DNA of 42,869 nucleotides from a virus, in the IMG/VR virus record IMGVR_UViG_3300045922_000174. One strand, given 5' to 3'. The translations under genes were made by a program, and so were the position numbers. Of this stretch, positions 1 to 42,869 are shown one piece after another. Numbering within the stretch: the stretch's first letter is position 1; every line of letters begins with the position of its first letter. The notes below the pieces were generated by a model, which saw only the letters and a list, made by a program, of their open reading frames with translations, did not search any database and was not told the DNA's origin.

Positions 1-127
1 CTCCTCAAAGGAATACAATGTGTACTCGATTTTATGGCGGAAGACCTCGTACTTTTCCTTGTCCTGAAGAACGCGATACATGGTAACAATAGAGCCATTG
101 ATGTCATTGTAGAGTTCGGAGGGGTGG
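1..127. repeat. Terminal direct repeat, copy 1 (identical to 42743..42869); probably an assembly overlap of a circular or circularly permuted genome
   Basis: The first 127 nt (ctcctcaaaggaatacaatgtgtactcg...gttcggaggggtgg) recur exactly as the last 127 nt of the window. An ORF reads in frame through the junction. Confidence 0.9.
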
Positions 128-270
128 CGCGGCTTGTTCAGCAACACCCAAGCCGCGCCGCCGAACGGTTCAACATAGAACGTGCCGTAAGGTAAATTCT
201 TCAGGACGAAATCAATGTAGTAGAATTTTCCGCCGAAATACGGTACGGTTATGATTTTTCCGTTCGACAT
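1..270 (-). CDS. N-terminal part of a Dam-like (D12 class) N6-adenine DNA methyltransferase; the gene wraps around the circular junction and continues at 42137..42869
   Basis: A minus-strand ATG at 268..270 is preceded by GGAGGA. The translation MSNGKIITVPYFGGKFYYIDFVLKNLPYGTFYVEPFGGAAWVLLNKPRHPSELYNDINGSIVTMYRVLQDK... carries the GGK, EPFGGAAW (FxGxG-type AdoMet motif I) and NDIN motifs typical of Dam-family enzymes. It runs off coordinate 1 in frame with ORF 42137..42823. Confidence 0.85.
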   Translation of the reverse strand, partial: MSNGKIITVPYFGGKFYYIDFVLKNLPYGTFYVEPFGGAAWVLLNKPRHPSELYNDINGSIVTMYRVLQDKEKYEVFRHKIEYTLYSFEE

Positions 271-463
271 CGTTTTCCTCCTCGAAGTAGACCAACTGCA
301 TGATGAGATGCTTTGCCCCCATCTCTCCGAGCTTGAAGAGTTTTTGGACATACTCAATCCATCGTTTCCACTCGTATCGTTCTTCTTCATCGAGGGACGC
401 AAGGAAGGCGTCAAAGCGTTCAGCGTCTCTTTTCATGATGTTGTCAGACCGTCCCGGTTGCAT
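212..463 (-). CDS. Hypothetical protein (83 aa)
   Basis: Internal ATG at 463 of track ORF 212..517, preceded by GGAGGAG. The 3' end overlaps the methyltransferase start by 59 nt in another frame. I recognise no motif. Confidence 0.5.
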   Translation of the reverse strand: MQPGRSDNIMKRDAERFDAFLASLDEEERYEWKRWIEYVQKLFKLGEMGAKHLIMQLVYFEEENDVERKNHNRTVFRRKILLH

Positions 464-701
464 CGTACTCCTCCTCGTTGGTGACAATCGGAAACCAGAC
501 ATCGAAGCGCATGACACCAGCTACTTTTTTGTACGGGATTTTCTCTTCTTCGAGCTCCTGAATCAGGAAACCCGGGGCGTCTTGCGCAATCTCAACGTAC
601 GGTGGGCGTACGTTGTACTTGCGCATGTAGTGAAACAGGTAATCAAACAGGAGCCCGGGGCTATCCAAGCGGAAGACATGGTATTCGGAATACGGTTTCA
701 T
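444..701 (-). CDS. Hypothetical protein (85 aa)
   Basis: ATG at 701 (MKPYSEYHVF...) preceded by GGAGGC. It abuts the stop of the upstream small ORF (TGAtATG). The longer track ORF 444..773 lacks an RBS. Confidence 0.6.
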   Translation of the reverse strand: MKPYSEYHVFRLDSPGLLFDYLFHYMRKYNVRPPYVEIAQDAPGFLIQELEEEKIPYKKVAGVMRFDVWFPIVTNEEEYDATGTV

Positions 702-702
702 A

Positions 703-858
703 TCAGCCTCCCAGTCTCGAAACCAGAAACTTGAACACGGCAACGATTTGGTCATCAAAGAACACAACTGCAATCAGCACGATTACCCATGTGATGACAC
801 CCATCAGCAGTAAATCGAGGATGGAATAGACTTTTTTGGGAGAGTATTTATTGGACAT
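703..858 (-). CDS. Small single-pass membrane protein (51 aa; below the ORF-track cutoff)
   Basis: My own translation is MSNKYSPKKVYSILDLLLMGVITWVIVLIAVVFFDDQIVAVFKFLVSRLGG. It has a hydrophobic core of about 23 residues and is tightly packed between neighbouring genes. Confidence 0.5.
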   Translation of the reverse strand: MSNKYSPKKVYSILDLLLMGVITWVIVLIAVVFFDDQIVAVFKFLVSRLGG

Positions 859-866
859 GTTACACC

Positions 867-3286: not shown

Positions 3287-4079
3287 TGTTTTGCCCTCCA
3301 AGAATTTTGCGAACGACTTCGGCATTTTTCTCGTGGACTTGTTGACGCTTTGACGGACGTGAATGATTGTGTTGTTTTTTGGGCGCGCGGAAACCGTTCA
3401 CCTTCCAGTTTTTGAGAATGCCCTCGACATACCTCCAGTTTCGCGCGTTGGAGATTGCCGCTTCGCTGATGGCGGCGGTGACCCAATCTACGCCGTAGTC
3501 ATCTACGGCGGCGATGACCTTCTCCGAAATCAAAGGCGTCATGGGCCCAATCTCTTTGTGGTATGCCTGAAATGCCTGTTGCACTTCCGGCGAAACTTGC
3601 GAATTTGCCGCGTCGTCCTTAACAACAACAACAACTTTATTAATATCTGTATTCTTAATATCTTGGTAACGATTTATGTAACGATTCGTTACATGATTCG
3701 TTACATCTTTCGTTACATTTTCTCCTTCAGTTTTTGCATTTTCCATCGCCAATTTTTTAACATTTCGATAACGTCTCACCCGTTCGGCGGTGCTTGATGC
3801 GCGTTGGCGTTCGGCGAAATTCGTCACAACCCATCTCTCAATTTCAGGGTCAAAATGGACGATGCCGATTTCCGACAGGCACTGGAGCTCGTGTTGCAAC
3901 TGGTCGTGGTTTATGTGGAGTATCCACCCCATCTGCTGGAGAGGGGGCAAGACGCCCCCTCTCCGTTCAATGCCAGCAAGAAGGAATAGCTCCACCATGC
4001 GTCTCCAGAGTGTGTCGGACAGCACGCCGACTTTACTGTCTGTAAGGATTTCATGGTAGAGTTTTATCCAGTGCATCAT
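3273..4079 (-). CDS. Replisome organiser / DnaD-like replication initiation protein
   Basis: The N-terminus MMHWIKLYHEILTDSKVGVLSD...WRRMVELFLLAG resembles phage replisome-organiser N-domains. The C-terminus ...AISNARNWRYVEGILKNWKVNG is the DnaD/DnaB_2 signature. Iteron repeats are embedded in the linker-coding region. Confidence 0.85.
   Translation of the reverse strand: MMHWIKLYHEILTDSKVGVLSDTLWRRMVELFLLAGIERRGGVLPPLQQMGWILHINHDQLQHELQCLSEIGIVHFDPEIERWVVTNFAERQRASSTAERVRRYRNVKKLAMENAKTEGENVTKDVTNHVTNRYINRYQDIKNTDINKVVVVVKDDAANSQVSPEVQQAFQAYHKEIGPMTPLISEKVIAAVDDYGVDWVTAAISEAAISNARNWRYVEGILKNWKVNGFRAPKKQHNHSRPSKRQQVHEKNAEVVRKILGGQNNGNS
3666..3717. repeat. Intragenic iteron cluster: 3 direct TCGTTACA copies at 12-bp spacing plus 2 inverted copies (candidate origin)
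   Basis: Direct TCGTTACA copies start at 3686, 3698 and 3710. Inverted GTAACGA/TGTAACGA copies lie at 3666..3672 and 3677..3684. TGTAACGAtTCGTTACA forms a 17-bp palindrome at 3677..3693. Confidence 0.7.
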
Positions 4080-4351
4080 TGCGCTCTCTCCAAATATCCA
4101 ATCAGGATGACGTTCTGGTTGATGAGCTCTGCGCCGGCATCCACTTGCCGTTGCAGGTATCGTTCCGCCATTTTCTGGATGATGCGCTTGAATGGATTGC
4201 GGAATTTCATCTCCTTCAGGTCATTCAGCAAGGTCAGGTTCAGCATGTACATCTCGTGCAAGTCCTGAATGGATGTACCAGATTTAGCCTGAAACAGGTA
4301 AATGATTGACAGAAGGACATATATGGGGTATCGCATAATGACGTATTTCAT
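4076..4351 (-). CDS. Hypothetical protein (91 aa); possibly a small winged-helix DNA-binding protein
   Basis: ATG at 4351 after GGAGGA, with ATGA overlaps to both neighbours. The segment YVLLSIIYLFQAKSGTSIQDLHEMY is reminiscent of wHTH regulators, but the resemblance is weak. Confidence 0.6.
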   Translation of the reverse strand: MKYVIMRYPIYVLLSIIYLFQAKSGTSIQDLHEMYMLNLTLLNDLKEMKFRNPFKRIIQKMAERYLQRQVDAGAELINQNVILIGYLERAQ

Positions 4352-4839
4352 GTTTCCTCCACACGATTGACATCAATCATCGGTGCAAGCGGGATGATGA
4401 GAGGGGTAATCAGTGACCGTGAACCGCTGGTGATGACCGCGGCACAGTACGACAAGAGAAACTGCGTCCACGTCAGCGGAACGTCATTGGGGGTGATTTT
4501 GGCAAAGCCATTCTTCTCGAGCTGGAAGATAAAATCGGCGGCAGTTTTCACGGACATTCCATTGCCATTGCCCATCGCCGCAAGAACCTCACGCGGTTCG
4601 CCGGCTTTGGAGACCACGGCGAAGGCATATCCGCTTCCCTGTTGCCACATATAGACCAGCAACTGTTCGCTTTGCCAGATTGCCGTTCCGACATCGCCGC
4701 GCATTGCGGCTCTCATCCCGGACAACGTGTGATAGAAGTCCACCGGTGAGATGCCGCCTTGCGTTGCGCCGAGTGGAACGCACGCGGTGTTGGACGCCAA
4801 CACCATCAGAACCAAAAAGATTTGAACCAACCGTTTCAT
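4348..4839 (-). CDS. Secreted or membrane-anchored protein (163 aa) with an N-terminal signal peptide and a C-terminal hydrophobic segment
   Basis: ATG at 4839 (MKRLVQIFLVLMVLASNTAC...) after GGAGG. The N-terminus is signal-peptide-like or lipoprotein-like with a Cys at about position 20. The C-terminal stretch FLLSYCAAVITSG...LITPLIIPLAPMI is hydrophobic. Confidence 0.7.
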   Translation of the reverse strand: MKRLVQIFLVLMVLASNTACVPLGATQGGISPVDFYHTLSGMRAAMRGDVGTAIWQSEQLLVYMWQQGSGYAFAVVSKAGEPREVLAAMGNGNGMSVKTAADFIFQLEKNGFAKITPNDVPLTWTQFLLSYCAAVITSGSRSLITPLIIPLAPMIDVNRVEET

Positions 4840-4959
4840 TGTTTCTACCTCCGATTCTTTAACATTTGATTTTGTGTTTTCTTGCTGACACTGATTCGTG
4901 AAAATGGGGTGCGTTTTCTGCACATTTTGTGTTGAATGTGTGAATCATGTAACAAAACA

Positions 4960-5081
4960 TCGTTACACATTCGTTACATAAATCGTTACACATTCGTTAC
5001 ATAAATCGTTACATTAAATGTAACGTTTCGTTACATCATTCGTTACATTAAATGTAACGAATCGTTACATTAATCGTTACA
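4960..5081. repeat. Intergenic iteron array: 9 direct TCGTTACA copies plus 2 inverted copies (candidate replication origin or organiser binding array)
   Basis: Direct copies start at 4960, 4971, 4983, 4994, 5006, 5028, 5040, 5062 and 5074, a spacing of 11-12 bp or 22 bp. Two perfect 19-bp palindromes CGTTACATTAAATGTAACG lie at 5007..5025 and 5041..5059. No ORF is present. Confidence 0.8.
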
Positions 5082-5091
5082 TTGTTAAGGT

Positions 5092-5131
5092 GCAAAAAGA
5101 GTGCCACGTGAATCAAATCACGTGGCACTCT
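5092..5131 (-). terminator. Rho-independent terminator downstream of recT
   Basis: A 14-bp perfect stem pairs 5098..5111 (agagtgccacgtga) with 5118..5131 (tcacgtggcactct) around a 6-nt loop. On the minus strand it is followed by a T-run (complement of aaaaa at 5094..5098, partly shared with the stem base). It begins 3 nt after the recT stop. Confidence 0.8.
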
Positions 5132-5133
5132 GA

Positions 5134-5931
5134 CTATTTCTGCTCCTCACCGAATAACTGTTTGATGGCTTCGTCAGCGGTCAGGGGCTCTTCCGGCTCT
5201 TCGGGAATGGGGGTGACTTCTTCGGGCGCGGGTAATTCGGCGGAGATGCGCGCGGTCAGACTTTGGTTTTCGTCCTCATCACTGACATCATCGTCATCGT
5301 ACAAATTCATGACCGACATGGGCCCGTACTTGAGGAGTTTTCGCAATACAGTCTTCCGCGCCATGTCATCGAAATTTGTAGTCCAAGCACTATCCGGCAT
5401 GCCCCACGACTTGGAATACTTCTTGGCGTGTTCCTTCACCTCGTCTACGGTCATATAGACTGTCTTTTCGAAGCCGTTGACGAGTTTGAAGAATCCGAAA
5501 TAGCCAACGGTTTTCGTCCCTGGGCGAATACGCCGGAAATTGTGCAGACCCGTCTTGATGTCCAGCGTAATCTCCACCCCGTCATCGAGAACAGCATCGT
5601 TGATGTATCGGTATTGGTTTGTCCGCAATGCTAACTGCATTAATCCCTTGTACCCTATTATCAGCGTGCATTTATTCTTGTACGGGACAAGGTATGCCTG
5701 TCCCGTATTCGGATTTACGGACAGTCGAAGGGTTGCGGCGTTCAGCGCGGACGCGATGATGCTTTGTGGCTCACATTGCTGGAGACGCGGGTTCTGCGCC
5801 GCCTGTAAAAGAACATCCGCAATGTACGCATTGGCGTTTCCAGTACCAACGATGGAGGCGAACCGTTCCCGTATCTCCAAACTGTTGGCATACTTTTTCA
5901 AAACCATTTGATTGTTCTGGTTTTCAGCCAT
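5134..5931 (-). CDS. recT: RecT-family single-strand annealing protein
   Basis: 265 aa. RecT-like stretches include ...NPRLQQCEPQSIIASALNAATLRLSVNPNTGQAYLVPYKNKCTLIIGYKGLMQLALR...VYMTVDEVKEHAKKYSKS...ARKTVLRKLLKYGPMS, and the C-terminal tail is acidic. Confidence 0.9.
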   Translation of the reverse strand: MAENQNNQMVLKKYANSLEIRERFASIVGTGNANAYIADVLLQAAQNPRLQQCEPQSIIASALNAATLRLSVNPNTGQAYLVPYKNKCTLIIGYKGLMQLALRTNQYRYINDAVLDDGVEITLDIKTGLHNFRRIRPGTKTVGYFGFFKLVNGFEKTVYMTVDEVKEHAKKYSKSWGMPDSAWTTNFDDMARKTVLRKLLKYGPMSVMNLYDDDDVSDEDENQSLTARISAELPAPEEVTPIPEEPEEPLTADEAIKQLFGEEQK

Positions 5932-5969
5932 CTTTCAGTTCCTTTCTTTTTTATGGGGATTGTGTCTCT

Positions 5970-6008
5970 TTTATACGTCAAAATAAGTTGTTAACTTAAT
6001 TGACGTAT
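5970..6008 (-). promoter_or_regulatory. Candidate promoter/operator upstream of recT: 9-bp inverted repeat ATACGTCAA-N18-TTGACGTAT overlapping a TATAAA -10-like hexamer
   Basis: The inverted-repeat arms lie at 5973..5981 and 6000..6008. On the minus strand the sequence reads TTAAGT-N18-TATAAA (-10 at 5970..5975) about 35 nt upstream of the recT start. The hexamers are only moderate matches. Confidence 0.35.
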
Positions 6009-6037
6009 GTAAGGATTATCAGGTGACAAACGTCACG

Positions 6038-6424
6038 TTATAATCCTTTCGTAAGGCTGAAGATAACCAGTGCTGATAATATGGATAGTGTCATTTTCAG
6101 CATTTCCAGACCGACACGCTCCCATAATGAGTTCCGTTTCTCTTCCTGCTTCCGCGTTTCCTCTAAATGATTATCGAGTGCCTTACTCACATCATCTACC
6201 CGCTCCTCGATGCGCTCAACAGACGCTTGCAGTTCACTATCGCACGCTTCGCGCTCTTTTTCCAGCCGGTCAATTCGCCCAATAAGACCCTCCTTACCAT
6301 TCCCTTCCACGAGTTTTATCAGGCGTTCCACCTTGTCCACAAGCAGTATCAATGTCTCTCTTTCGTTTTGCGGTGTTGCCATCATGGTCTCCTGATTCGC
6401 CTCATCTTCCTGCGGTTCAGCCAT
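6038..6424 (-). CDS. Tail-anchored coiled-coil membrane protein next to the endolysin (XhlA-like architecture; putative lysis accessory protein)
   Basis: 128 aa with an acidic N-terminus, a long coiled coil (RIDRLEKEREACDSELQASVERIEERVDDVSKALDNHLEE) and a single C-terminal TM segment (MLKMTLSILSALVIFSL). An alternative start at 6382/6385 (MMATPQ) has a better AGGAGA RBS. Confidence 0.55.
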   Translation of the reverse strand: MAEPQEDEANQETMMATPQNERETLILLVDKVERLIKLVEGNGKEGLIGRIDRLEKEREACDSELQASVERIEERVDDVSKALDNHLEETRKQEEKRNSLWERVGLEMLKMTLSILSALVIFSLTKGL

Positions 6425-6433
6425 TGAAGAAAT

Positions 6434-7198
6434 TTATTGTTTTCCTTCGATGATGCTTTCGATTTTTGCGATGCGTTTTTCAAGGTCTTCAATTCGCTCC
6501 TCAATCGTTGGTTTGCTTTCTTTCACCCTGCCAAAATACTCATTGACCGCCTTTTCATCTCCATTCCAGCGGTTGTAATCCTGATACATTTTGTCTGTGC
6601 TGGCACAGAACGCCGGGCATTTGTCACCGGTCTGGTGAATCAGCCATGTGCTTGCACCTTTGGGTAATACAGGCGGGCCCGGGTGTTCGTCAGCATAAAT
6701 GCTTCCCGGTTTCGGTTTGAGATACTGCGCCACCCATAACCATAAATTGACATTCGGCATGTCTTTGAGTGAAAGCCGGCGATTGAGAAACTCTGCACGG
6801 CTATACAGAATCGGTGTCCTGCCTGTGCGCCGCTCAATAATCCTTGCTAAATCGTTGACCGTCTTGGTGTATTGGCTGACACTGACATTGTGAACGCCGT
6901 CCTCCAATTCCACGTCCAGAACAAAACGGTCATGTTCGTCAAATGTGCCAACATGGGTAAAAAAGTTATCCGCCTGCCGGATTGCGTCTTCATTGGGATA
7001 GACGACATGATACGCCATCCGGTTGTATCCGCGCTTTCCCGCTTCCGCCCAATTGGCGGCAAAGAACGGGTCACGATACGCCCATGAGATTGTGCAACGA
7101 AACGCAATGAATGTCACTCTTGGTATGTGCGCATCCACCGCATCCCACCTCAAAAATCCATCATACCTTGACACGTCAATACCAAATGCTCTCTCCAT
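6434..7198 (-). CDS. Endolysin, glycoside hydrolase family 25 muramidase-like
   Basis: The N-terminus MERAFGIDVSRYDGFLRWDAV...VTFIAFRCTISWAYRDPFFAANWAEAGKRGYNRMAYHVVYP matches the GH25 pattern (GIDVSxxxGxIxW ... GAYHF-like). The C-terminus is a coiled coil (IEERIEDLEKRIAKIESIIEG). RBS is AAGGAGA. Confidence 0.8.
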   Translation of the reverse strand: MERAFGIDVSRYDGFLRWDAVDAHIPRVTFIAFRCTISWAYRDPFFAANWAEAGKRGYNRMAYHVVYPNEDAIRQADNFFTHVGTFDEHDRFVLDVELEDGVHNVSVSQYTKTVNDLARIIERRTGRTPILYSRAEFLNRRLSLKDMPNVNLWLWVAQYLKPKPGSIYADEHPGPPVLPKGASTWLIHQTGDKCPAFCASTDKMYQDYNRWNGDEKAVNEYFGRVKESKPTIEERIEDLEKRIAKIESIIEGKQ

Positions 7199-7210
7199 AG
7201 CCGTCTCCTT

Positions 7211-8014
7211 TTACAACATATTGAACCTCATCCAGTGTACTGACATAATGGTTGTTCCCGGCACAACCCGACAACAGGCAAGGAAGCCGATATGGGTCGG
7301 CGTCATAAATGACGAAAGATTATAGTCTACGAGTAAAGGACAGATGAAACCATCATAGCCGTAGCCGTAAGTATATCCGGTTGATTTTTTGGCGATGTAT
7401 AAATAGGGATGAAAGTATTGTGTTTCACCTTGAGCTGACGGGTTGCCATTCCAAGATGTTGCTGAGTTCCAATTCTCTACATTTATCGAAATATTGCTTG
7501 AATCCCTGTTATTCATTACCATATTAATCTTGCCGCTGTTCTGGTCATACAAACCAAGCGCGGCTATTGTCCAGTCACTGTATGTTGACCCTCTCGATGT
7601 TGCCGCCATACCCACTTTGGCGTAGCATTCCCAATATCCAGGAGGTATCGGTTTAGCAACACCGCGAAGTTGCAAAGTGTTATGCCCGTCTACCTTCATC
7701 ACCAAAGCACTTTTCTCAACCCATTGCGTGAAATTGCTACTGCCGTTGATAGTTATCCAAGAAGATGACAGGTTATCGTCAAATTCTTCGTTGTATTGCG
7801 ATGCAGGCCACAACTCCCGCGCATCAATGCCAACGTCAATTCCGCCACCACCAATGTCCCATGACCAACCAGCAGACGTGTACATTCCTATTTTCCCTGT
7901 ATCTGTGGCATAGGCAATCATGCCCTCAATCGGCGATGGAGTTGCTTCTATCTGTGATTGGGTGGCTTTGTAAAGTACACCGGGTTTTCCTAATTGTTGG
8001 TCATTCGCTTTCAT
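7211..8014 (-). CDS. Tail fibre / receptor-binding protein candidate (beta-rich, lectin/jelly-roll-like C-terminal part)
   Basis: 267 aa and last in the tail gene run. The N-terminus GMIAYATDTGKIGMYTSAGWSW is typical of fibre-tip proteins. The rest is Ser/Asn/Trp/Tyr-rich and beta-type in composition. Confidence 0.55.
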   Translation of the reverse strand: MKANDQQLGKPGVLYKATQSQIEATPSPIEGMIAYATDTGKIGMYTSAGWSWDIGGGGIDVGIDARELWPASQYNEEFDDNLSSSWITINGSSNFTQWVEKSALVMKVDGHNTLQLRGVAKPIPPGYWECYAKVGMAATSRGSTYSDWTIAALGLYDQNSGKINMVMNNRDSSNISINVENWNSATSWNGNPSAQGETQYFHPYLYIAKKSTGYTYGYGYDGFICPLLVDYNLSSFMTPTHIGFLACCRVVPGTTIMSVHWMRFNML

Positions 8015-33740: not shown

Positions 33741-33942
33741 TTTCTCCTCCTTCCACAATCTCCAGCAACTCCGGCGGGGCAATTATGCGCATTATCCTTT
33801 TGATTTCCTCCGGTATGTTCTGCCACGCAATATCTACAAGTTTCATGTCCGGCGCGTTCCACTCCGCCTCGAACTTCTCCCGCCATTCCAGCACCTGATT
33901 CATACCAAACAGTATCGCATCACTGGCTCGTAAGGCATCCAT
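33721..33942 (-). CDS. Hypothetical protein (73 aa)
   Basis: The ATG at 33942 overlaps the portal stop (TGATG) and has GAGGAGGA upstream. I recognise no motif. Confidence 0.55.
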   Translation of the reverse strand: MDALRASDAILFGMNQVLEWREKFEAEWNAPDMKLVDIAWQNIPEEIKRIMRIIAPPELLEIVEGGENGKQYS

Positions 33943-35696
33943 CACAATTCCTCCTCGCCCGGTAATCCGCGCTCAAATAATGGTTTGACCGGCTCCTGTA
34001 ACGGAAATCCTTGCAATCCCATTTGTGCTTCACCGCCATTCGCCCCGGGCGGCATCGGCGGCATCTCACCCGGCGGTTGTTGCGGCGGCATCTGCTCCAT
34101 TCCAGCCGGCGGCATCCCACCCGGCGGCATTCCACCTTGCATCATCTGTTGTGCCATCTGTTGTTGCTGTTGCGCCTGCATCATCTCTTCCTGTAGCATT
34201 TGCATAAAGCGCATTTGTGCCGCACGCTCACTCCATACGCGGTATTGCTCCATGTCCGGTTGCTCAATGCCCAAGAACTTACTGCGGGCATATTCCAGAC
34301 TGGCTAACGGATTTTCTCCTTGTGTCAACTGCAGGGCAATCATCGCATTCACGCGTTCATCCTGCGGCAAATCAATATCTAATTGTACGCTTACCTCAAA
34401 TTCATCGGGAATGTCATTGACATCATAATCAATATATCCATCATCTGTCACCACCCGTCCGCTCTCCCCCACCGTCTTCAGTATCTTGAAAGCGCACTTC
34501 AGCGCATCGCCAATTGCCCACGAAATCGTCCGCTGGTACGGCACTAACGGCAAGCGTCCAGACTGCGAAAGTAATGCCACCATGCTGAACGGCGCATTTG
34601 CACCCAACGGCTCACCCAACGTTTGACGATAAATTGTGCTATCCGCCGACAATTTATCGTACATCTCATTCATCTGCATCAGACTTGGGTCAAGTACCTG
34701 CTTCGCCAACGGCTGATAATCCTCATCGGCATCTATCGTCACCCGCCCGCCCGGCTGACTGAAGTCCATGTCCGGCGCGGTTTTGTCAGGACGGTTGCGC
34801 TTGTACAGGAACAACGGATTTGCACCTATCGCAAAGGCAAGCGATGACTGCAACGTCAATGATAAATTCTGTCGAAATACTAAATTGCTCTTCCACAACG
34901 TGTACAAAAACGGCTGGCGTGTCTGGTACACATCGCGCCCAAATTGGGAAGCAGAAAATAACTCGCTCCCTTCGCACACCTGACAAATGACGGGAATGTA
35001 CCCCCACGGGTTTTCCTCGTCAATCGCCGGTCTTTCCTGCCCTTCCACCCAAACCACATGCTGGTCAAAATCCCAATACTCGTACACCTTTATATCATCG
35101 GTGTCTTTCCGCCCTTCGATATTCTCCAACTTCAGAATGTCCCGCATGTCACCAACCCGCCGCATCTGCGCCGATACATACGCTTTCAATCCCATCTCAT
35201 CCATCACCGGATACCCCGCCGTTGGATTGATGACATCAAAAATAATCGGCGTCCGCTTCGCCAATTCCTGCAATCGCCTGTTCTTCGGATTGGACTGCAA
35301 CATCTGAACCGTGCTTTTTACGGCTATCTGGACTTCACTGTACAACAATCCAGACAACACGGCGTCATAATGCACCGGCTTCCCGCGAATACGACCAGCG
35401 GCACGCCATAAGACGTTCCCTAATCGCTCAATCTTGGACGCTTGCTCTGTCTTATAGTCCTGATTGTATTCTTCCGCAATCGAGATTTTCGGGTCTGCCG
35501 CCGTCAATAACCTGACCGCACCAACCAGCGCATTTCGCGCGTCAGGATGACGTGTCGGCTTTATCCAGTCATTGTCCGGCAAATCCCCCATGTCCTCCAG
35601 CAGGTAAATCTTCTCCATCTCTCGAAACATCTTGTCTCGATTGGAGTATCCAGAGATTACATCACTGGCATAACGTTTCACTTCATCAAAATTCAT
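33942..35696 (-). CDS. Portal protein (putative) with a Q/M/P/G-rich low-complexity C-terminus
   Basis: 584 aa, immediately downstream of terL and of typical portal size. The C-terminal 90 aa are low in complexity (MQAQQQQQMAQQMMQGGMPPGGMPPAGMEQMPPQQPPGEMPPMPPG...). Confidence 0.7.
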   Translation of the reverse strand: MNFDEVKRYASDVISGYSNRDKMFREMEKIYLLEDMGDLPDNDWIKPTRHPDARNALVGAVRLLTAADPKISIAEEYNQDYKTEQASKIERLGNVLWRAAGRIRGKPVHYDAVLSGLLYSEVQIAVKSTVQMLQSNPKNRRLQELAKRTPIIFDVINPTAGYPVMDEMGLKAYVSAQMRRVGDMRDILKLENIEGRKDTDDIKVYEYWDFDQHVVWVEGQERPAIDEENPWGYIPVICQVCEGSELFSASQFGRDVYQTRQPFLYTLWKSNLVFRQNLSLTLQSSLAFAIGANPLFLYKRNRPDKTAPDMDFSQPGGRVTIDADEDYQPLAKQVLDPSLMQMNEMYDKLSADSTIYRQTLGEPLGANAPFSMVALLSQSGRLPLVPYQRTISWAIGDALKCAFKILKTVGESGRVVTDDGYIDYDVNDIPDEFEVSVQLDIDLPQDERVNAMIALQLTQGENPLASLEYARSKFLGIEQPDMEQYRVWSERAAQMRFMQMLQEEMMQAQQQQQMAQQMMQGGMPPGGMPPAGMEQMPPQQPPGEMPPMPPGANGGEAQMGLQGFPLQEPVKPLFERGLPGEEEL

Positions 35697-35699
35697 CGC

Positions 35700-37172
35700 C
35701 TACCTCGCTTTCAACCACGGGTTATTCCGCTCCATTTTACCCTTCGCCGGCTGACCGGCGTAATCTACCAGCGTATTGAACGCCGTTGACGCGGCATCTA
35801 CCATGTCATCATGAATCTTATCGGGAAAACCGTGTAACTGCGATAAGAACGCATCTACCCATCGCCCGGCAACCAGACGCACCAAACCCTGCTCCGCCGC
35901 GCTGGAAAATCCCATCGCACGTTGCACTTTGTCCCCATACGCCGGGACACCATCACAATTGATTGTCCCGAATTTGCTCGTCAGCAACCGCTTCAACCGC
36001 TCCGTTTCCCGTATTCCTGCACTACCCGGCTCCACTTCCCACCGCAACACGTAATGCGCTCCCGCCGCTTCAGCAAGTTTCCGGTCACGTTCAGCGGTCA
36101 AGGCTATCACATCGTCTAATTCACCGGCACTGTATCGCTCATTGATTACGTCCATGACGTAATAATACCCGCCTACCTTCCTCATCTTCACGCCCGCCGT
36201 GTAGTCCGGGTCATTATTCCGCAAACTGCGCAACGTTGCCGCAAAATCCCATGCCCGGCATTCCACACCACCATCAGGAACGTAATTCACCACTTCGAAC
36301 CACTGTGAATTGAACACTTTGCCGGCTTCCGCGCGGATTTTCCAGTTCCCGCCGCGCTTTGCGTCACCCAAAAAACGCTCACGCTCCACATATTGTAACA
36401 TCTGCAAGCGTGACAGGTAATTGGGGTCTTTCTCTAACAACAATTTATTGTCATACACCGTAGCAGGGATAAACGTCATGCTTAATGTCTTGACGCCCGG
36501 ATACTCGTTCAGTATCACGTTCTCGTTTTCCGCCATCTTCAATTCATCGTTTATCCGCGCTATCCATACAATCTTCCCCGCTTTGGATAAATCGGCATAC
36601 CCATCATCGCCTATCCAGTATGACAATAATTGCGGTAGCCAATCTGAACCCTCATCCCGCGGGTCAGGAGGGTTACACGTGGCGCGCACACGCGGAGGAA
36701 CGCCGCATGTCGTGCGGTTGCGCGCCATTAAGTACCAGAATGCACGCTCCGAAAAATGCTCCAACTGGTCAAACGCAAGCAAAGCAATTTGCGCGCCATC
36801 ATACTTGTACAAATCGCCGTCCGACTGGCAGTGACCAAACGCCACCACCGCGCCGGACGGAAAACGCCATTCCATGTCCTTTTCGGACGCACGCGCCCCC
36901 AACAACGGGTATATCCGGGACGCTTCATCCCACAACCCGCCCGGCTTCGTCACGTCCGCATACGTCCGCCGGAATATCAGCGCACGAAAACCGGGAACAT
37001 TTATATCCCGCAACGGGTCAAGCAGTAATGCCCATGTCTTCCCGCCGCCCGCCGCGCCGCCATAAATGGCAATATCGGCAGGTGTGGACAGGAATTCTTC
37101 CTGCCGTCCGGGTTGCGGTTTGATAATAACCGCTTCGGCGTCACTCGTTGTCACCGGTGGGCGGTAGAACAT
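35700..37172 (-). CDS. terL: Terminase large subunit
   Basis: 490 aa. The Walker A motif is IYGGAAGGGKTWALL. The Walker B/coupling region is LLAFDQLEHF, followed by ATCNP. A C-terminal nuclease-like region contains ...CRAWDFAAT... and ...HDDMVDA. Confidence 0.9.
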   Translation of the reverse strand: MFYRPPVTTSDAEAVIIKPQPGRQEEFLSTPADIAIYGGAAGGGKTWALLLDPLRDINVPGFRALIFRRTYADVTKPGGLWDEASRIYPLLGARASEKDMEWRFPSGAVVAFGHCQSDGDLYKYDGAQIALLAFDQLEHFSERAFWYLMARNRTTCGVPPRVRATCNPPDPRDEGSDWLPQLLSYWIGDDGYADLSKAGKIVWIARINDELKMAENENVILNEYPGVKTLSMTFIPATVYDNKLLLEKDPNYLSRLQMLQYVERERFLGDAKRGGNWKIRAEAGKVFNSQWFEVVNYVPDGGVECRAWDFAATLRSLRNNDPDYTAGVKMRKVGGYYYVMDVINERYSAGELDDVIALTAERDRKLAEAAGAHYVLRWEVEPGSAGIRETERLKRLLTSKFGTINCDGVPAYGDKVQRAMGFSSAAEQGLVRLVAGRWVDAFLSQLHGFPDKIHDDMVDAASTAFNTLVDYAGQPAKGKMERNNPWLKAR

Positions 37173-37722
37173 CTATCACCTCTTGCGCTTGCGCCATTCT
37201 GCGGTGATTGTCAGGTATGTACACCACAACGTTATTGGTCGTCTCTACGCGGTCAACCATCATCCCGTACATCCGCGCCAATGCCAATAACGCCGTCAAC
37301 TTATCGTACATCTCCACATCTACGCTCCCGTCACGATTTAGCCGGATTTTACGGATAAGACCGGTCAACCCCTTTTCCTTCGCCGCTTTCAGGTTGAATT
37401 TGCCGTCCTCATCTATGAACTCCCCGATGTCACCGCGCGCAATCTCCGCAATCCGGGATTTGACCTCGTCCGCACTCATGCTCATCTTCTGGAGATGATA
37501 CATGACCGCTTCGCGGACAATGGGTATCATCATCAGGGAACGCCCCTTATCCTGCTTGTCTTTCAGGTCGTAGCCGGCTAGTTTAACCGCTTCAACGTAG
37601 GATGACGTTTGGGCGTAGTACTTGGCAAATAGCCAAGTCTTGTAATCCATGCGCTGGAAGTATGCCGGCCGGTCATCCACGACCGGACTTTGTTCGTCAG
37701 CAGGTTTCAGACGGTTTGTCAT
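37141..37722 (-). CDS. terS: Terminase small subunit (Terminase_2-like)
   Basis: 193 aa. WLFAKYYAQTSSYVEAVKLAGYDLKDKQDKGRSLM is an HTH region as in small terminases. ...MSADEVKSRIAEIARGD... and KLTALLALARMYGM also fit, and the gene sits directly upstream of terL. Confidence 0.8.
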   Translation of the reverse strand: MTNRLKPADEQSPVVDDRPAYFQRMDYKTWLFAKYYAQTSSYVEAVKLAGYDLKDKQDKGRSLMMIPIVREAVMYHLQKMSMSADEVKSRIAEIARGDIGEFIDEDGKFNLKAAKEKGLTGLIRKIRLNRDGSVDVEMYDKLTALLALARMYGMMVDRVETTNNVVVYIPDNHRRMAQAQEVIDVLPPTGDNE

Positions 37723-38099
37723 TCCTCACCATGCATAACGCCGTTATCCGGTTTGGCAGGGAACATCTCCCCATAAATCGCTTTGGCGTTACCTACGATT
37801 GACGACACGACACGCGCCACCGCGGCAAGCCAAGCCGCAGTGACGACGGTATCGCTGGCGATGTAGGCGTAATCGCCCATGGTGTCAGGAACGGCGGCAC
37901 GCGCAAGAATGGCGAACGCCGCCCAACCGACAAGCAAGGGTAATACGCTTGTCTGGTAAAACCGCGCCAATTCGTAAAACGAGAATTGACCGCGCTTGAT
38001 AGCCAGTGCTACGCCTAGGATGACGTCAGCGGCTATGAGTGCAAGCAACGTCTGAATCTGCGTCCCGAACGCGGATAGAACGTTTAGGGTAATCTCCAT
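37719..38099 (-). CDS. Three-TM membrane protein, holin-like (phage holin family 4 / LL-H-like pattern)
   Basis: 126 aa with RBS AGGAGGTG. TM1 LLALIAADVILGVALAIKRGQFS resembles the (I/L)DxxTG(V)xxAxxxxxxxS motif of toxin-secretion/phage-lysis holins. Two further TM segments follow. It is the first gene after the leftward promoter. Confidence 0.5.
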   Translation of the reverse strand: MEITLNVLSAFGTQIQTLLALIAADVILGVALAIKRGQFSFYELARFYQTSVLPLLVGWAAFAILARAAVPDTMGDYAYIASDTVVTAAWLAAVARVVSSIVGNAKAIYGEMFPAKPDNGVMHGEE

Positions 38100-38118
38100 G
38101 CGTCACCTCCTACCACCC

Positions 38119-38147
38119 ATTATAACTATCGCTTCTCCAGTTTTCAA
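38119..38147 (-). promoter_or_regulatory. Near-consensus sigma70-type promoter for the leftward gene train (TTGAAA-17-TATAAT)
   Basis: The minus strand reads TTGAAA (38147..38142), a 17-nt spacer, then TATAAT (38124..38119). AGGAGG and the ATG at 38099 follow about 20 nt downstream. Confidence 0.7.
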
Positions 38148-38154
38148 TCATTCA

Positions 38155-38690
38155 CGGCACGCACAGGAAGCGGCGATACCTGCAAACGGCGCGCGGTCAC
38201 GCTGGACGCCGAACACAGGAAGCCGGCAGGACGCGCCGCGCATACGCGCGGCGGCGGCGCGCGAAGCGCGCCGCACTGCCACAGTCTGGACGCCACCAGA
38301 CCGGATAACAGGAACTCCCGCCCCGGGCGCGGAACGCGCGCACTGGAACGCTGGACGCTGGACGCTCCAGCAGGTATCCGAACGCGCGCACTGGACGCCG
38401 CGCCACACAGGAACACGCGCCGCGCGTATGGTCACGCTCCAGCAAGACAGGGAACGGCGAACGCTCCGGCCGGCTTCCTGCGTTTCATTCTTACTTGCGT
38501 TTCACGCACTGCGCCGCGCCGCTCCGCGCAAGCAAAAACCGCTTGCGCTCCGCTTGCGCGTGTTCGTCCTCTCCCTGCCAAAAAGACGCTTCCTGCACAG
38601 GAAGAGAGAACGCCGCGCGCTGGAACGCACAGGAACGCGCCGAAACGCCGCACAGGATGACGCCCCGCGCGCGCGCTGGACGATGAACAA
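38155..38690. repeat. GC-rich non-coding island densely packed with short direct and inverted motifs (CACAGGAA and CTGGA(A)CGC families)
   Basis: (C/A)ACAGGAA-type motifs start at 38162, 38214, 38307, 38406, 38446 (degenerate), 38596, 38628 and 38651, with inverted CTTCCTG at 38474 and 38589. CTGGA(A)CG(C/A) starts at 38202, 38286, 38343, 38351, 38358, 38391, 38620 and 38676. A 13-nt long-range inverted repeat pairs CATACGCGCGGCG (38241..38253) with CGCCGCGCGTATG (38417..38429). A hairpin GCGCAAGC-N7-GCTTGCGC lies at about 38525..38547. All six frames are open only because stop codons are rare in GC-rich DNA. Confidence 0.8.
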
Positions 38691-38784
38691 ATGTAACAAC
38701 AGAATGTTACAAATGATAACGGACATTGCGCGCGCGGAAAGTTTCCAGTGAGAGACACTCTCAAAACTGGTGAATTTTGGGGAC

Positions 38785-38813
38785 TTGCAAATTACAATAT
38801 TGTTTGTTACAAT
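38785..38813 (+). promoter_or_regulatory. Near-consensus sigma70-type early promoter for the rightward block (TTGCAA-17-TACAAT)
   Basis: TTGCAA lies at 38785..38790, followed by a 17-nt spacer and TACAAT at 38808..38813. The upstream flank is AT-rich. AAAGGAGA and the ATG at 38852 follow. Confidence 0.7.
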
Positions 38814-38851
38814 AGTGTAAAACACATTCCCAAACAGAAAGGAGATAAACC

Positions 38852-39169
38852 ATGAGCAAGATAGAGGAGTTTTTAGAAAGACTGAACGAAAGTGTGGAGG
38901 GGTTGAACGTAAGCGAAGAATACTTTGTGGACGGCGTTTTGAATCTGCTTTGTGACCTAGAAGACTTTTCGGAAAGCCGGCGGAATGCTGAAGAGATTAT
39001 CGAGAAAGCGCGCAAGGTGAACGCGAGCGGAAAGAAAGTGCCGCGTTTCGTGAAAGTTCTTGCGACGTGCGAAGATTACCCGGAAAAGCGAACGGCGGTT
39101 TGGGTTGCGTATTTTACTGCGGACAATGACTGCTACGATTGTCTGCTACCCAAACCGGAAGCGGTCTAG
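38852..39169 (+). CDS. Hypothetical early protein (105 aa) with a strongly acidic N-terminal half
   Basis: It is the first gene after the early promoter, with RBS AAAGGAGA. The product begins MSKIEEFLERLNESVEGLNVSEEYFVDGVLNLLCDLEDFSE... Confidence 0.75.
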   Translation: MSKIEEFLERLNESVEGLNVSEEYFVDGVLNLLCDLEDFSESRRNAEEIIEKARKVNASGKKVPRFVKVLATCEDYPEKRTAVWVAYFTADNDCYDCLLPKPEAV

Positions 39170-39190
39170 AGTTAAGTAATCAATTCAAAC

Positions 39191-39223
39191 CCTAGCCGGG
39201 TAGGCGGTCAGACCCGGCAAAGG
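39191..39223 (+). promoter_or_regulatory. Conserved RNA hairpin, copy 1, able to pair with the Shine-Dalgarno sequence of the downstream gene
   Basis: The stem pairs GCCGGGT (39195..39201) with ACCCGGC (39212..39218) around the loop aggcggtcag. Flanking CCT (39191..39193) can pair with AGG (39221..39223) of the AAAGGAG RBS of the gene starting at 39231. Confidence 0.5.
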
Positions 39224-39230
39224 AGAAACA

Positions 39231-39725
39231 ATGAAAATCAAGATGAGCGATAGACACGGCGTGATAGAGGAGTGGAACGTCAAGTCTCACTACTACGACA
39301 TGGAGTTCCCGGTTGTAATATGCGTCAATGGCGATGAGGAAGCAGAGTTCATCCTTGCCCGGCATGACGAACACGCGGGCGAACTTGCTAAACTCCACTG
39401 GTTATATATGGCAATGTCCGACCCGCGGGAATTTGCGGAAATCATCGGCATTGAAACAATGGTGTCGTGGTTGCTTGGCGATTGGGCAGGGCCCGGGAAC
39501 GAACACGCGCGGTCATTTGAGGAATGGTTGAATGATGTTGTTTCAAGGTATCCTGCAGAAACCCTGTCCGTTGACGACATGGCGCGAACGGTGTTTGAAA
39601 ACGAGGAACTAGAAGCGGAAGTTGGCTTCATGCCGCGATTAGCCTATCGGCGCGCACAAAGCGATAAATCTATTCATCCTGTTGAAGCCTTCGCCGGGTG
39701 GGCGGTGAAACCCGGCAGGAGATAA
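39231..39725 (+). CDS. Hypothetical early protein (164 aa), paralog of 39908..40315
   Basis: Good RBS. It shares with the 135-aa ORF the pattern A..AG..A......A..DP.EF....G..T...W..G......(S)..EWL.....E......GF.P..AY. Confidence 0.75.
   Translation: MKIKMSDRHGVIEEWNVKSHYYDMEFPVVICVNGDEEAEFILARHDEHAGELAKLHWLYMAMSDPREFAEIIGIETMVSWLLGDWAGPGNEHARSFEEWLNDVVSRYPAETLSVDDMARTVFENEELEAEVGFMPRLAYRRAQSDKSIHPVEAFAGWAVKPGRR
39688..39719 (+). promoter_or_regulatory. Conserved RNA hairpin, copy 2, able to pair with the Shine-Dalgarno sequence of the downstream gene
   Basis: The stem pairs GCCGGGT (39693..39699) with ACCCGGC (39710..39716) around the loop gggcggtgaa. CCT (39688..39690) can pair with AGG (39717..39719) of the AGGAGA RBS of the gene starting at 39728. 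It lies inside the 3' end of the preceding CDS. Confidence 0.5.
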
Positions 39726-40782: not shown

Positions 40783-40784
40783 CC

Positions 40785-41024
40785 ATGCGGAAAAGACCAT
40801 TCTCCAACGGTGCTGAATTTGTAGCATGGAAAGCGCGCAACTGCAACCGGTGCGCGCTGGAGTGGACGCCAGCCGATGGCTGGTCATGCGAAATAGAACG
40901 CGCGCTTGACTTCGCCGCCATGACGGGCGGGAAAGTGGACGAGGAAATCCTTGTCCGCATGGGGCAGGTCAATCACGCAAATAATTTGGTGTGGGATTGT
41001 CCCGAACGAAAGGAGATTACATGA
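40785..41024 (+). CDS. Hypothetical Cys-containing early protein (79 aa)
   Basis: RBS is AAGGGAGA. The product begins MRKRPFSNGAEFVAWKARNCNRCALEW...WDCPERK. It has an ATGA overlap with the next gene. Confidence 0.65.
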   Translation: MRKRPFSNGAEFVAWKARNCNRCALEWTPADGWSCEIERALDFAAMTGGKVDEEILVRMGQVNHANNLVWDCPERKEIT

Positions 41025-41536
41025 TAATCCGATTTGAAAATGAAGAGACTGCCGGGCGCGCGCTTGCGCGCGCCCATTCTACGCTTAAATGGCGCGCATT
41101 CATCAATCGGGTTGAGGATAGCATCGCCGTATGCCCGACCAATCCACAAATCAATGCGGAGACACTGCGCGCCGTCCGCCCCATGCGTCCCGTCTGCGCG
41201 TTCTTCGATGATAAACCGGTGTTCGAGGACAACATCATCGAAACGTGGGCAATCTGCGCCTCGTTCGGGGAGAACGCAAATTGGAAAGTCTTGAAGGGGA
41301 ACATCTACTATGTCCCCCTGTACATGGACATCCGCACATCCCGCCAATGGTACGCATTGTTACCTGTAGGCAATGAGGCGGTGGTCAGGATAAAAAACGT
41401 GGACGACTTCAGTCCAACCCACAAGTATCCGTTGTCGTTCAACGGCACAGTAAAACTTATAAAGGGATATATCCCAAGAAAGGAGGAAGAAAATGATACA
41501 ACAGCGTCCTACTTTATCCATCTATTGCGACCGTAA
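41021..41536 (+). CDS. Hypothetical early protein (171 aa)
   Basis: ATG at 41021 (MIIRFENEETAGRALARA...) after AAAGGAGA. The track start at 40991 is not supported by an RBS. Confidence 0.65.
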   Translation: MIIRFENEETAGRALARAHSTLKWRAFINRVEDSIAVCPTNPQINAETLRAVRPMRPVCAFFDDKPVFEDNIIETWAICASFGENANWKVLKGNIYYVPLYMDIRTSRQWYALLPVGNEAVVRIKNVDDFSPTHKYPLSFNGTVKLIKGYIPRKEEENDTTASYFIHLLRP

Positions 41537-41825
41537 AACCCTCGAACGTGTCCGCCAAGTTGCGCGCGCGCACGGCTTCACCCACCTTCGAGGAAGCCGC
41601 ACAGGACATGGGTCTCCAAACCAAATCTTTGAAGCAATCGGCAAGGGAGACTTGGCACTGGTCAGGGTAGAAGGGATACGGCACGAGATATTGAGAGAAA
41701 TCGCCAAAGAGATTGAGAAAACTGCAGACACCACAGAACACGACCTCGAGGGCGTGTTGTTGCGAAAATTCGCACGCGCCCTCGAAGTTGCCGCATTATC
41801 GAAAATTAGGCTTGAACAATTATAA
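41493..41825 (+). CDS. Hypothetical protein (110 aa); possible ribbon-helix-helix-type DNA-binding N-terminus
   Basis: RBS is AAAGGAGGAA. TLSIYCDRKTLERVRQVARAHGF has a strand-helix pattern like RHH/CopG proteins, though weakly. It overlaps the preceding ORF by 44 nt. Its 3' end overlaps the convergent DUF1064 gene by 20 nt. Confidence 0.55.
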   Translation: MIQQRPTLSIYCDRKTLERVRQVARAHGFTHLRGSRTGHGSPNQIFEAIGKGDLALVRVEGIRHEILREIAKEIEKTADTTEHDLEGVLLRKFARALEVAALSKIRLEQL

Positions 41826-42144
41826 ATATACGCTCTGGATAGAGCATGTTTGCGAGACGCCACTTGAGTTTAAAGAGTGGCGTCTCGACACCTTTAACAT
41901 CCTCCACAAAGACCTTGCCGTCCGGCGTCTTGTACTCGAAATCCGCCTCGTAGAATACTGCCCGATAACGCTTGTCGTTGATAAACATGAATGGAACAAT
42001 CTCATATTTGGGATGAACGATAAGGTCTTTGATTTCACCGGCTTTCAGCAGAATGAGCAGTTCCGCATAACGATTTGCTTCAGCGGCACTGTCAAAGGTA
42101 ATGTTGTCAACAGACGTTCTGCGTGCATGATATTTGTTACTCAT
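41806..42144 (-). CDS. DUF1064-family protein (PD-(D/E)xK-like nuclease, putative resolvase-type)
   Basis: ATG at 42144 (MSNKYHARRTSVDNITFDSAAEANRYAELLILLKAGEIKDLIVHPKYEI...YEADFEY...VFVEDVKG) reproduces the KYxAxKTxxDGxxFDSxxEAxRYxxL ... YxADFxY ... EDVKG pattern of DUF1064. RBS is AAAGGAGA. Confidence 0.75.
   Translation of the reverse strand: MSNKYHARRTSVDNITFDSAAEANRYAELLILLKAGEIKDLIVHPKYEIVPFMFINDKRYRAVFYEADFEYKTPDGKVFVEDVKGVETPLFKLKWRLANMLYPERIFIIVQA
41853..41887 (+). terminator. Strong 12-bp hairpin just downstream of the rightward block (candidate terminator or RNA-end structure, no U-tract), inside the antisense DUF1064 CDS
   Basis: CGAGACGCCACT (41853..41864) pairs with AGTGGCGTCTCG (41876..41887) around an 11-nt loop. 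It starts 28 nt after the stop at 41825. Confidence 0.4.
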
Positions 42145-42869
42145 CGAATAGTCTCCTTTGCCCATACTTTCCGGGCTTGATGTAAAGCACTTCCTCTCTG
42201 TGAAGGAACTCTTCCCATTCCGGGCTTTCCATCTTTTCTTTGTCTGCCTTCTTGGCAGAATGCGCCACTCCGTCCTTGACCACCTTATAGCACAACCCCG
42301 CTTCGACCAGCCGGTTGTAAATCGGGTTGTCGTATGAGGAAAGCGCAAATGAACCCTTCACCTGAAGCAACAGGTCAACCAACTCCTCATGCTTTTCATC
42401 GCTCATCTCATGGGTATATACGATTTTTTCCTTGCGTGTTCCAGTCGGATACGGCGGGTCTAAATAGAACACGGTGTCAGGCGTGTCGTAACGTCGGATT
42501 ACATCGAGGGCGTCACGGTTATCAATGATGACATACTGCAGGCGTTCATGTATCCGTTGCAGACTTTCTTTGCGATGGGAAAATGCTATGGGAACGTTGG
42601 TTTTAACTGCGAACCTGAAACTGCCAGGGCGGTTTTGTTGAATACCTGAAAGCGCCATTGAAAGCATCACAAAAACTGCCCAAGCGCGGTCAACATCATC
42701 CGCTTCGACACGTCCGTCGTAAATATCAACTGCTTTCCTGTACTCCTCAAAGGAATACAATGTGTACTCGATTTTATGGCGGAAGACCTCGTACTTTTCC
42801 TTGTCCTGAAGAACGCGATACATGGTAACAATAGAGCCATTGATGTCATTGTAGAGTTCGGAGGGGTGG
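42137..42869 (-). CDS. C-terminal part of the Dam-like (D12 class) N6-adenine DNA methyltransferase (continues from 1..270 across the circular junction)
   Basis: It contains VFYLDPPYPTG (DPPY catalytic motif IV). The frame stays open upstream of the annotated Met at 42823 to the window end and joins the N-terminal part through the 127-bp overlap, giving a total of about 291 aa. Confidence 0.85.
   Translation of the reverse strand, partial: HPSELYNDINGSIVTMYRVLQDKEKYEVFRHKIEYTLYSFEEYRKAVDIYDGRVEADDVDRAWAVFVMLSMALSGIQQNRPGSFRFAVKTNVPIAFSHRKESLQRIHERLQYVIIDNRDALDVIRRYDTPDTVFYLDPPYPTGTRKEKIVYTHEMSDEKHEELVDLLLQVKGSFALSSYDNPIYNRLVEAGLCYKVVKDGVAHSAKKADKEKMESPEWEEFLHREEVLYIKPGKYGQRRLFDE
42743..42869. 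repeat. Terminal direct repeat, copy 2 (identical to 1..127)
   Basis: Exact 127-nt identity with the window start. The unique genome length is therefore 42,742 bp. Confidence 0.9.

Follow-up and report, generated by a model that had tools for sequence, protein, structure and literature searches.

The phage genome in IMG/VR record IMGVR_UViG_3300045922_000174, analysed here as one window (the whole stretch of 42,869 bases), contains no GATC on either strand and encodes a DNA methyltransferase of the D12 (Dam-like) class. The absence of GATC is real and far beyond chance. Its probable cause, in our judgement, is a purge under GATC-directed nucleases of the host, part of a broader loss of Type II restriction sites. 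The D12 methyltransferase is, on this view, not a canonical Dam and is likely directed at another motif.

A string count of GATC in the window gave 0, against expectations of 164.9 (base composition) and 174.9 (second-order Markov model). An independent pattern search also returned 0, compared with 190.6 +/- 12.2 in 100 dinucleotide-preserving shuffles, and the count is likewise 0 across the circular junction. The total absence claimed from a manual scan in an earlier, sequence-only reading is borne out by these counts. Both ends of the window are identical over 127 bp, and because this repeat is exact the genome is a complete circular assembly of 42,742 unique bp. The same phage was recovered independently in two IMG/VR contigs (L001, L002) and in one Logan contig (L008, from SRR30649436), each with a GATC count of 0, so the absence is not an artefact of a single assembly. 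Megablast of 25 kb of the genome against GenBank phages gave zero matches; the phage therefore has no annotated relative. Scans for tRNAs and Rfam families found nothing.

Codon-junction statistics were compiled from 38 non-overlapping open reading frames (ORFs), which cover 95% of the genome, for every codon junction able to form GATC. Before a codon starting with C, Asp is written GAC 103 times and GAT never, while GAT makes up 59% of the Asp codons elsewhere. Ile after a codon ending in G is ATC in 0 of 209 cases, against 45% elsewhere, and Ser after an NGA codon is AGY in 10 cases and TCN in none (TCN 62% elsewhere). GATC is thus avoided at the DNA level through synonymous codons, whatever the protein sequence. 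Since the dipeptides stay permitted in the proteins while the codons are chosen against GATC, it is the nucleotide sequence that is under selection.

Besides GATC, at least 12 restriction motifs are reduced by 85-100% (Table 1). Expected counts were taken from a second-order Markov model for 4-mers and from a dinucleotide model for longer or degenerate motifs. The sequence-only reading had listed other 4-bp palindromes as present and had singled out GATC as the avoided site. Those palindromes are indeed present, but the depletion of GGCC, AGCT and CTAG was overlooked, and GATC is one among at least 12 avoided restriction motifs. Palindromic 6-mers are affected in general: 19 of the 64 (30%) are absent, against 7.1% of the non-palindromic ones, and the median observed/expected ratio (O/E) is 0.79 versus 1.0. 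The absent palindromic hexamers include GATATC, GGCGCC, TCCGGA, ATCGAT, GTCGAC, GTGCAC, GGTACC and AAGCTT. Sites at normal frequency are TCGA, ACGT, CCGG, GCGC, GTNAC, GCNGC, CCSGG, GRCGYC and GRGCYC. The pattern is one of broad Type II restriction-site avoidance, of which GATC is only the most extreme case.

Table 1. Restriction motifs with reduced counts in the window, in addition to GATC.
Motif	Observed	Expected	Remark
GGWCC	0	69	
GGYRCC	0	38	
CTNAG	1	82	
GAGTC	1	55	
GCWGC	3	78	
YGGCCR	2	52	
RGCGCY	3	38	
CCWWGG	3	34	
CCWGG	8	59	
GWGCWC	5	36	
CGRYCG	8	54	
GGCC	18	152	
AGCT	34	81	
CTAG	17	30	Mildly low
GANTC	46	170	
TTAA	59	88	

Among the remaining copies of AGCT, 28 of 34 lie within GAGCT. 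The possibility that GAGCT is a protected context of AGCT was set aside, this enrichment being attributed largely to the common Glu-Leu codon pair. All forms of RTCGAY (ATCGAT, GTCGAC and ATCGAC/GTCGAT) are absent, 0 against about 41 expected in total, and TCGA itself is not depleted (137 versus 115 expected). This loss suggests pressure on a degenerate site of the RTCGAY type; we know of no classical enzyme with such a specificity. Several non-palindromic hexamers are absent as well, namely CCCCAG, GTAAAC, ACGCTA and CCGCTA.

The set of avoided motifs differs by lineage among relatives of the phage. The relative whose large terminase subunit (TerL) is 70% identical (L003) has GATC at 1 of 31 expected and normal GGCC; in that with a 56% identical TerL (L004) GATC is normal, and in that with a 39% identical TerL (L006) GGCC is 0 of 54 expected and GATC normal. 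Joint depletion of GATC and GGCC was also observed in prophage-like regions with related terminases, in Pyrinomonadaceae metagenome-assembled genomes (MAGs; L018 and L020), in Lachnospiraceae (L052) and in Clostridia (L077), with observed/expected counts in L018 of 10/76 for GATC and 0/91 for GGCC. Avoidance of GATC together with GGCC therefore recurs over unrelated host phyla.

Some sites are fixed by the amino acid sequence. Trp-Pro is necessarily encoded as TGGCCN, and 1 such dipeptide is found against 13.5 expected; the codon pair for Gly-Pro (GGN CCN) always holds GGNCC, and Gly-Pro occurs 15 times against 46 expected. With both dipeptides depleted, restriction avoidance has therefore shaped the protein sequence. 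The Gly-Pro dipeptides that remain are written so that the site is GGGCCC in 14 of 15 cases (7 as GGG CCC, 7 as G GGC CCN). This hexamer is not depleted (14 versus 8.5-11.7 expected). Of the sites that the genome still has, it accounts for 28 of 29 GGNCC and for 14 of 18 GGCC. In this phage the GGGCCC context is either protected or tolerated, an exemption not seen in any relative compared. Restriction pressure extending to the protein sequence is what the depletion of Trp-Pro and Gly-Pro, and the rescue of Gly-Pro via GGGCCC, amount to. The opposite solution was observed in L170 (IMGVR_UViG_3300022538_000701), a viral contig with a homologue of the methyltransferase: GGWCC is 0, there is no GGGCC or GGCCC, implying zero Gly-Pro in 20 kb, and its remaining GGCC are TGGCCN (Trp-Pro), with no GGGCCC.

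The methyltransferase gene is split by the ends of the window and reads through the circular junction (Table 2). A 228-aa ORF (42137-42823) was rejected as the true gene, being an internal-Met artefact of the window break. The assignment to the D12 class made in the sequence-only reading holds: residues 11-230 match Pfam PF02086 (E=8.4e-18; 65.4 bits versus a cut-off of 22). The FxGxG-type S-adenosylmethionine (AdoMet) motif EPFGGAA (residues 34-40) precedes the recognition region and DPPY follows it. The cut-offs of the Dam family proper (NCBIfam TIGR00571 / PRK10904) are missed, with 65.3 bits versus 114.85 for TIGR00571 'dam' and 37 bits versus 441 for NF008152. Among solved structures the best match to the single sequence is EcoDam (E=1.6e-6), M.CbeI being found at E=0.004. 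A profile of 79 homologues gave 7e-20 for EcoDam, 6e-18 for DpnM, 6e-15 for M.CbeI and 2e-9 for T4 Dam, with 58 bits for M.CbeI versus 74 for EcoDam. Template modelling (TM) scores of an AlphaFold model (mean predicted local distance difference test score 92.6) were 0.61-0.67 to EcoDam, 0.62 to M.CbeI, 0.62 to DpnM and about 0.6 to T4 Dam. By these profile and model comparisons the enzyme appears about equally similar to M.CbeI and to Dam. In the alignment to EcoDam, which is only indicative at 18-20% identity, Lys9 is replaced by Pro, Arg124 by a gap or Gln and Pro134 by Ala; we take these three EcoDam residues, the first N-terminal and the other two in the beta-hairpin, to be contacts to GATC.

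M.CbeI is annotated as a D12 adenine methylase and has DPPY, yet it makes N4-methylcytosine (m4C) at GGCC (PMC3425538), as does its homologue DmtB (PMC3425538; PMC8616854). Because of these two enzymes, membership of D12 foretells neither GATC nor adenine, and the label 'D12/Dam-like' should be read with the caution that it does not predict GATC specificity. A GATC-free genome with a D12 gene is therefore no paradox, and the case is one of ordinary anti-restriction biology in phages. The tension that the sequence-only reading had seen, on the assumption that a Dam-class enzyme targets GATC, falls away with the missed TIGR00571 cut-off, the lack of the presumed contact residues and the comparable closeness of M.CbeI.

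The predicted recognition loop is flanked by the conserved elements GF(S/G)G and GxW(G)R and differs in length and sequence in nearly all of the 79 homologues. The closest orthologue from another phage, P0002, is 86% identical and differs chiefly in this loop: synonymous divergence (dS) between the two reaches 0.85 within the loop, against 0.18 over the remaining gene, and the recognition cassette appears swapped relative to P0002. Outside the loop the ratio of nonsynonymous to synonymous divergence is 0.23, indicating purifying selection. Taken at the level of sequence, the methyltransferase is a distant relative of Dam, most likely recognising a motif other than GATC. Reading the target from the motifs left unavoided was tried and dropped, since too many A-containing palindromes occur at normal frequency (TCGA, ACGT, AATT, GTAC, CATG).

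The gene lies in a replication and recombination module in the order RecT, DnaD-like, DnaN, methyltransferase and DUF1064 resolvase-like protein, and no nuclease partner beside the methyltransferase is present in the module. Judged by its family match, the DUF1064 neighbour belongs to this module and is not a restriction enzyme; the pairing of methyltransferase and DUF1064 is also found in L008 and L089. No second methyltransferase or restriction enzyme was detected in the giant ORF (see below) and 25 other ORFs, some of which were searched by only one of Pfam, PHROGs and PADLOC, several small ORFs being outside the scan. Phages with syntenic orthologues of the enzyme range in observed/expected GATC from 53/52 (O/E 1.0; L090) through 23/59 (0.39; L091) and 7/25 (0.28; L093) to 1/19.5 (0.05; L089). 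At the equivalent position L091 (8683-10438) has two tandem D12 paralogues (305 aa with 45% and 287 aa with 49% identity to that of the window), as is also seen in L092; GATC and GGCC are partly depleted there (O/E about 0.4). Across 80 IMG/VR viral contigs with members of the family the median O/E of GATC is 0.97, and three others are essentially GATC-free (L170, 1/55; L102, 2/52; L149, 0/24). In bacterial genomes the homologues are orphans carried on prophages; one of these prophages, in Acinetobacter, also has a PF05869 Dam, encoded separately at a distance of two genes. Presence of the enzyme and avoidance of GATC are uncoupled. Because of this, and because the gene is intact without a GATC substrate, the enzyme probably reads another motif.

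An uncultured member of the Chloroflexota/Anaerolineae is the probable host. The phage encodes a GH25 endolysin whose named homologues are all from Chloroflexi, Chloroflexota or Anaerolineaceae MAGs. In searches of TerL against genome contigs the best matches are Anaerolineales MAGs (47-48% identity), but TerL was rejected as a host marker, since matches at 40-48% identity are spread over many phyla and are not diagnostic. A Herpetosiphon host was considered on the basis of similar GC content and of the avoidance of GGWCC, GGYRCC, GTCGAC and GWGCWC, which we take to be sites of Herpetosiphon (Hgi) enzymes; it was set aside as unsupported because avoidance does not extend to GRCGYC and GRGCYC, and Anaerolineaceae are indicated by the lysin homologues. 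To our knowledge there is no cultured phage-host pair from the likely host group, the Anaerolineae. Metaepigenomics of Anaerolineae in Lake Biwa found methylation of GANTC, TTAA and GCWGC (PMC6329791). All three motifs are depleted in the phage, which is circumstantial evidence for the host and lends indirect support to the idea that it would encode nucleases against the avoided sites. From the avoided motifs one can in practice read which restriction systems an uncultured, probably Anaerolineae, host population deploys, something difficult to learn by other means where cultured phage-host pairs are lacking.

The proposal in the sequence-only reading that avoidance is driven by GATC-directed restriction was retained as the best explanation in view of the motif depletion and the codon statistics. 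GATC-directed nucleases of the host, for which an uncultured member of the Chloroflexota/Anaerolineae with many restriction-modification systems is the likely candidate, would select against GATC as part of a far wider purge of Type II sites. Selection would act on DNA, synonymous codons being picked so that no codon junction yields GATC, and where the encoded dipeptide forces a site (GGNCC for Gly-Pro, TGGCC for Trp-Pro), that dipeptide would be used less. The D12 enzyme would be an orphan amino-methyltransferase of the alpha class and of phage type, whose recognition loop is variable and whose gene sits in the replication/recombination module. It would most likely methylate a different motif present in the genome, its protection complementing site avoidance. 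A different specificity, one of the options named for the enzyme in the sequence-only reading, is accordingly the best supported of them; action on host DNA or a methyl-GATC-dependent nuclease would be possible but is not needed. Some points weigh against this explanation. The host is placed only to phylum or class, and the cognate GATC nuclease is therefore one that we infer. The argument from missing contact residues to a non-GATC target rests on alignments at 18-20% identity and on a presumed role of K9, R124 and P134 as contacts in the structures of EcoDam and T4Dam. Specificities assigned by homology frequently prove wrong, and errors go both ways (PMC6329791). From sequence alone, cutters of unmethylated GATC (MboI/DpnII type) cannot be told from methyl-dependent ones (DpnI/Mrr type).

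An alternative target for the enzyme, which we regard as unlikely, is GGGCCC or a longer motif that includes it: as an amino-methyltransferase acting on N4 of cytosine or otherwise, it would guard the GGNCC sites forced by Gly-Pro. The concentration of residual GGNCC and GGCC in this undepleted hexamer, the spelling of all but one Gly-Pro as exactly GGGCCC and the lack of the exemption in relatives would fit such a role, as would the example of M.CbeI and DmtB, which are annotated as D12, have DPPY and produce m4C at GGCC, the near-equal similarity of the family to M.CbeI and Dam, and the fact that the D12 enzyme is the only methyltransferase detected among the phage ORFs scanned. However, no direct link joins the enzyme to GGGCCC, the similarity to M.CbeI is weak (E=0.004, single sequence), and an identical pattern would result from an orphan methylase common to the host population, or from a host nuclease that is selective for flanking bases. 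If GGGCCC were the target, the phage would have removed every site that it could, and would write those forced on it as a single hexamer open to its own modification, probably as m4C. It is quite improbable that the enzyme is instead a true GATC methylase of the Dam type that acts on host DNA (for example so as to disturb mismatch repair, replication timing or gene expression) while the GATC-free phage escapes both kinds of nuclease, as with DpnI and DpnII in pneumococci. The D12 membership with intact AdoMet and DPPY motifs is compatible with it, and EcoDam leads narrowly among the PDB matches; purifying selection in a GATC-less genome means that the enzyme must have a substrate somewhere, and full removal of GATC is the sole solution that escapes both nuclease kinds. 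Yet the Dam family cut-off is missed and the presumed contacts are not kept. P0002 has a different loop although its phage is also near GATC-free (1/19.5), so loop identity is uncoupled from GATC avoidance; the Acinetobacter prophage with a family member and a separate PF05869 Dam weakly suggests different specificities, and a Dam activity would leave the other avoided motifs unexplained.

Loss of GATC might also serve to spare the phage from a GATC nuclease of its own that degrades host DNA, the methylase being unrelated or vestigial. Many ORFs have no assigned function and the giant protein has a domain of the ParB-like nuclease superfamily. The scan found no restriction-endonuclease family (several small ORFs lay outside it), however, the methylase neighbour is the DUF1064 resolvase-like protein of the replication module, and a dozen further avoided motifs and their lineage-specific patterns would stay unexplained, which makes a phage nuclease very improbable. 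That the absence arose in assembly or library preparation has no observation in its favour and is hardly credible, given the same 0-GATC sequence in independent Joint Genome Institute and Logan/SRA assemblies, the closure of the contig into a circle and the systematic compensation at the codon level. Host nucleases directed at GATC, among many other sites, and a methyltransferase with a different target are thus preferred.

The features discussed are listed in Table 2. The giant ORF, located between the genes for portal and capsid, makes up one third of the genome; its scan showed no methyltransferase domain. It resembles what we take to be the virion-delivered 'polyvalent' anti-defence proteins of the literature, and on the strength of its domains its product is probably one of them. 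The phage appears to invest heavily in counter-defence. The SU10-type adaptor protein suggests a podovirus-like virion. Between the divergent leftward (packaging/structural) and rightward (possibly early) gene blocks lies a 750-bp GC-rich non-coding region (38100-38850), which has no match in Rfam. It holds dense short degenerate repeats (CACAGGAA, CTGGA(A)CGC and two copies of GAACGCGCGCACTGGA) and long-range inverted repeats of 20 nt at 38212/38465 and of 13 nt at 38241/38418, and is a candidate origin or regulatory region.

Table 2. Coordinates of features in the window.
Feature	Position	Strand	Remarks
Terminal overlap, left copy	1..127	.	Identical to 42743-42869
Terminal overlap, right copy	42743..42869	.	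Exact repeat of 1..127
D12-class methyltransferase, whole gene	270..1 then 42742..42137	-	291 aa, ORF spanning junction
Methyltransferase, N-terminal 90 codons	1..270	-	PYFGGK; AdoMet motif EPFGGAA; NDIN (translation; PF02086)
Methyltransferase, C-terminal part (residues 48-291 + stop)	42137..42869	-	42743-42869 duplicates 1-127
Catalytic motif IV, DPPY	42449..42460	-	Residues 185-188
Predicted DNA-recognition hairpin/loop	42575..42667	-	Residues 116-146; hypervariable in family
DUF1064 / Holliday-junction-resolvase-like gene	41806..42348	-	Directly downstream of methyltransferase; PF06356 E=5.7e-22; PHROG 190
14 GGGCCC sites	3543..39494	.	Starts 3543, 5320, 6675, 12852, 13192, 15000, 20240, 20356, 22333, 22349, 32492, 32638, 33002, 39489; each is Gly-Pro
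Giant ORF	18877..33261	-	4,794 aa; ddrB-like ParB aa 3569-3699; GGDEF-like aa 1491-1615; HExxH (LVHETAHSF)
SU10-type adaptor protein	14504-15265		
Family-2 glycosyltransferase	15995-16744	-	PF13641 E=2.6e-7; structural module, adjoins major capsid gene
Major capsid gene	17161-18165		

Absence of GATC is known from Staphylococcus phage K in connection with Sau3AI. As in classical restriction-site avoidance by phages, a phenomenon established long ago, palindromic Type II sites are depleted in the window phage, which differs in the unusual breadth of the effect (at least 12 motifs; 19 of 64 palindromic hexamers) and in its reach to the dipeptides Trp-Pro and Gly-Pro. Rusinov et al. (2018) found that GATC is rarer than expected in each of 46 phages from hosts that encode nucleases specific for GATC (PMC6286503).

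The window enzyme shares with EcoDam, T4 Dam and DpnM the predicted fold (TM 0.6-0.67), the motif order, the FxGxG-type AdoMet motif and DPPY, and differs from them in its low identity (18-20%), its score below the TIGR00571 cut-off and the lack of conservation of K9, R124 and P134. Profile and structural similarity to M.CbeI and DmtB is comparable (58 bits versus 74 for EcoDam; TM 0.62), but M.CbeI adjoins its restriction enzyme, while the window enzyme, an orphan, is encoded within the replication module of a phage and is not closely related. Prophage D12 orphans of Acinetobacter baumannii and Hydrogenibacillus are 33-44% identical, of the same size and located among replication/packaging genes without an adjacent nuclease. 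Unlike the window phage, most of the 80 viral contigs with a family member are not depleted in GATC.

The haloviruses of the HF1 group (HF1, HF2, HRTV-5 and Hardycor2) have zero GATC and zero CTAG and encode N6 methyltransferases, which the authors concluded 'must target other motifs' (PMC7230728). Like them, the window phage lacks GATC and carries a DNA methyltransferase gene. The HF1 group are archaeal myoviruses of haloarchaea, whereas the host of the window phage is probably a Chloroflexota bacterium; CTAG, zero in the former, is only mildly low in the latter, whose avoided set is much larger and whose methylase is from a different (D12) lineage. The combination of a GATC-free genome and a methyltransferase has a published precedent, and by analogy the window phage appears to follow the same logic. 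It stands out by how many motifs it avoids, by the mark left on its dipeptides, by its exemption of GGGCCC and by the clade to which its host probably belongs.

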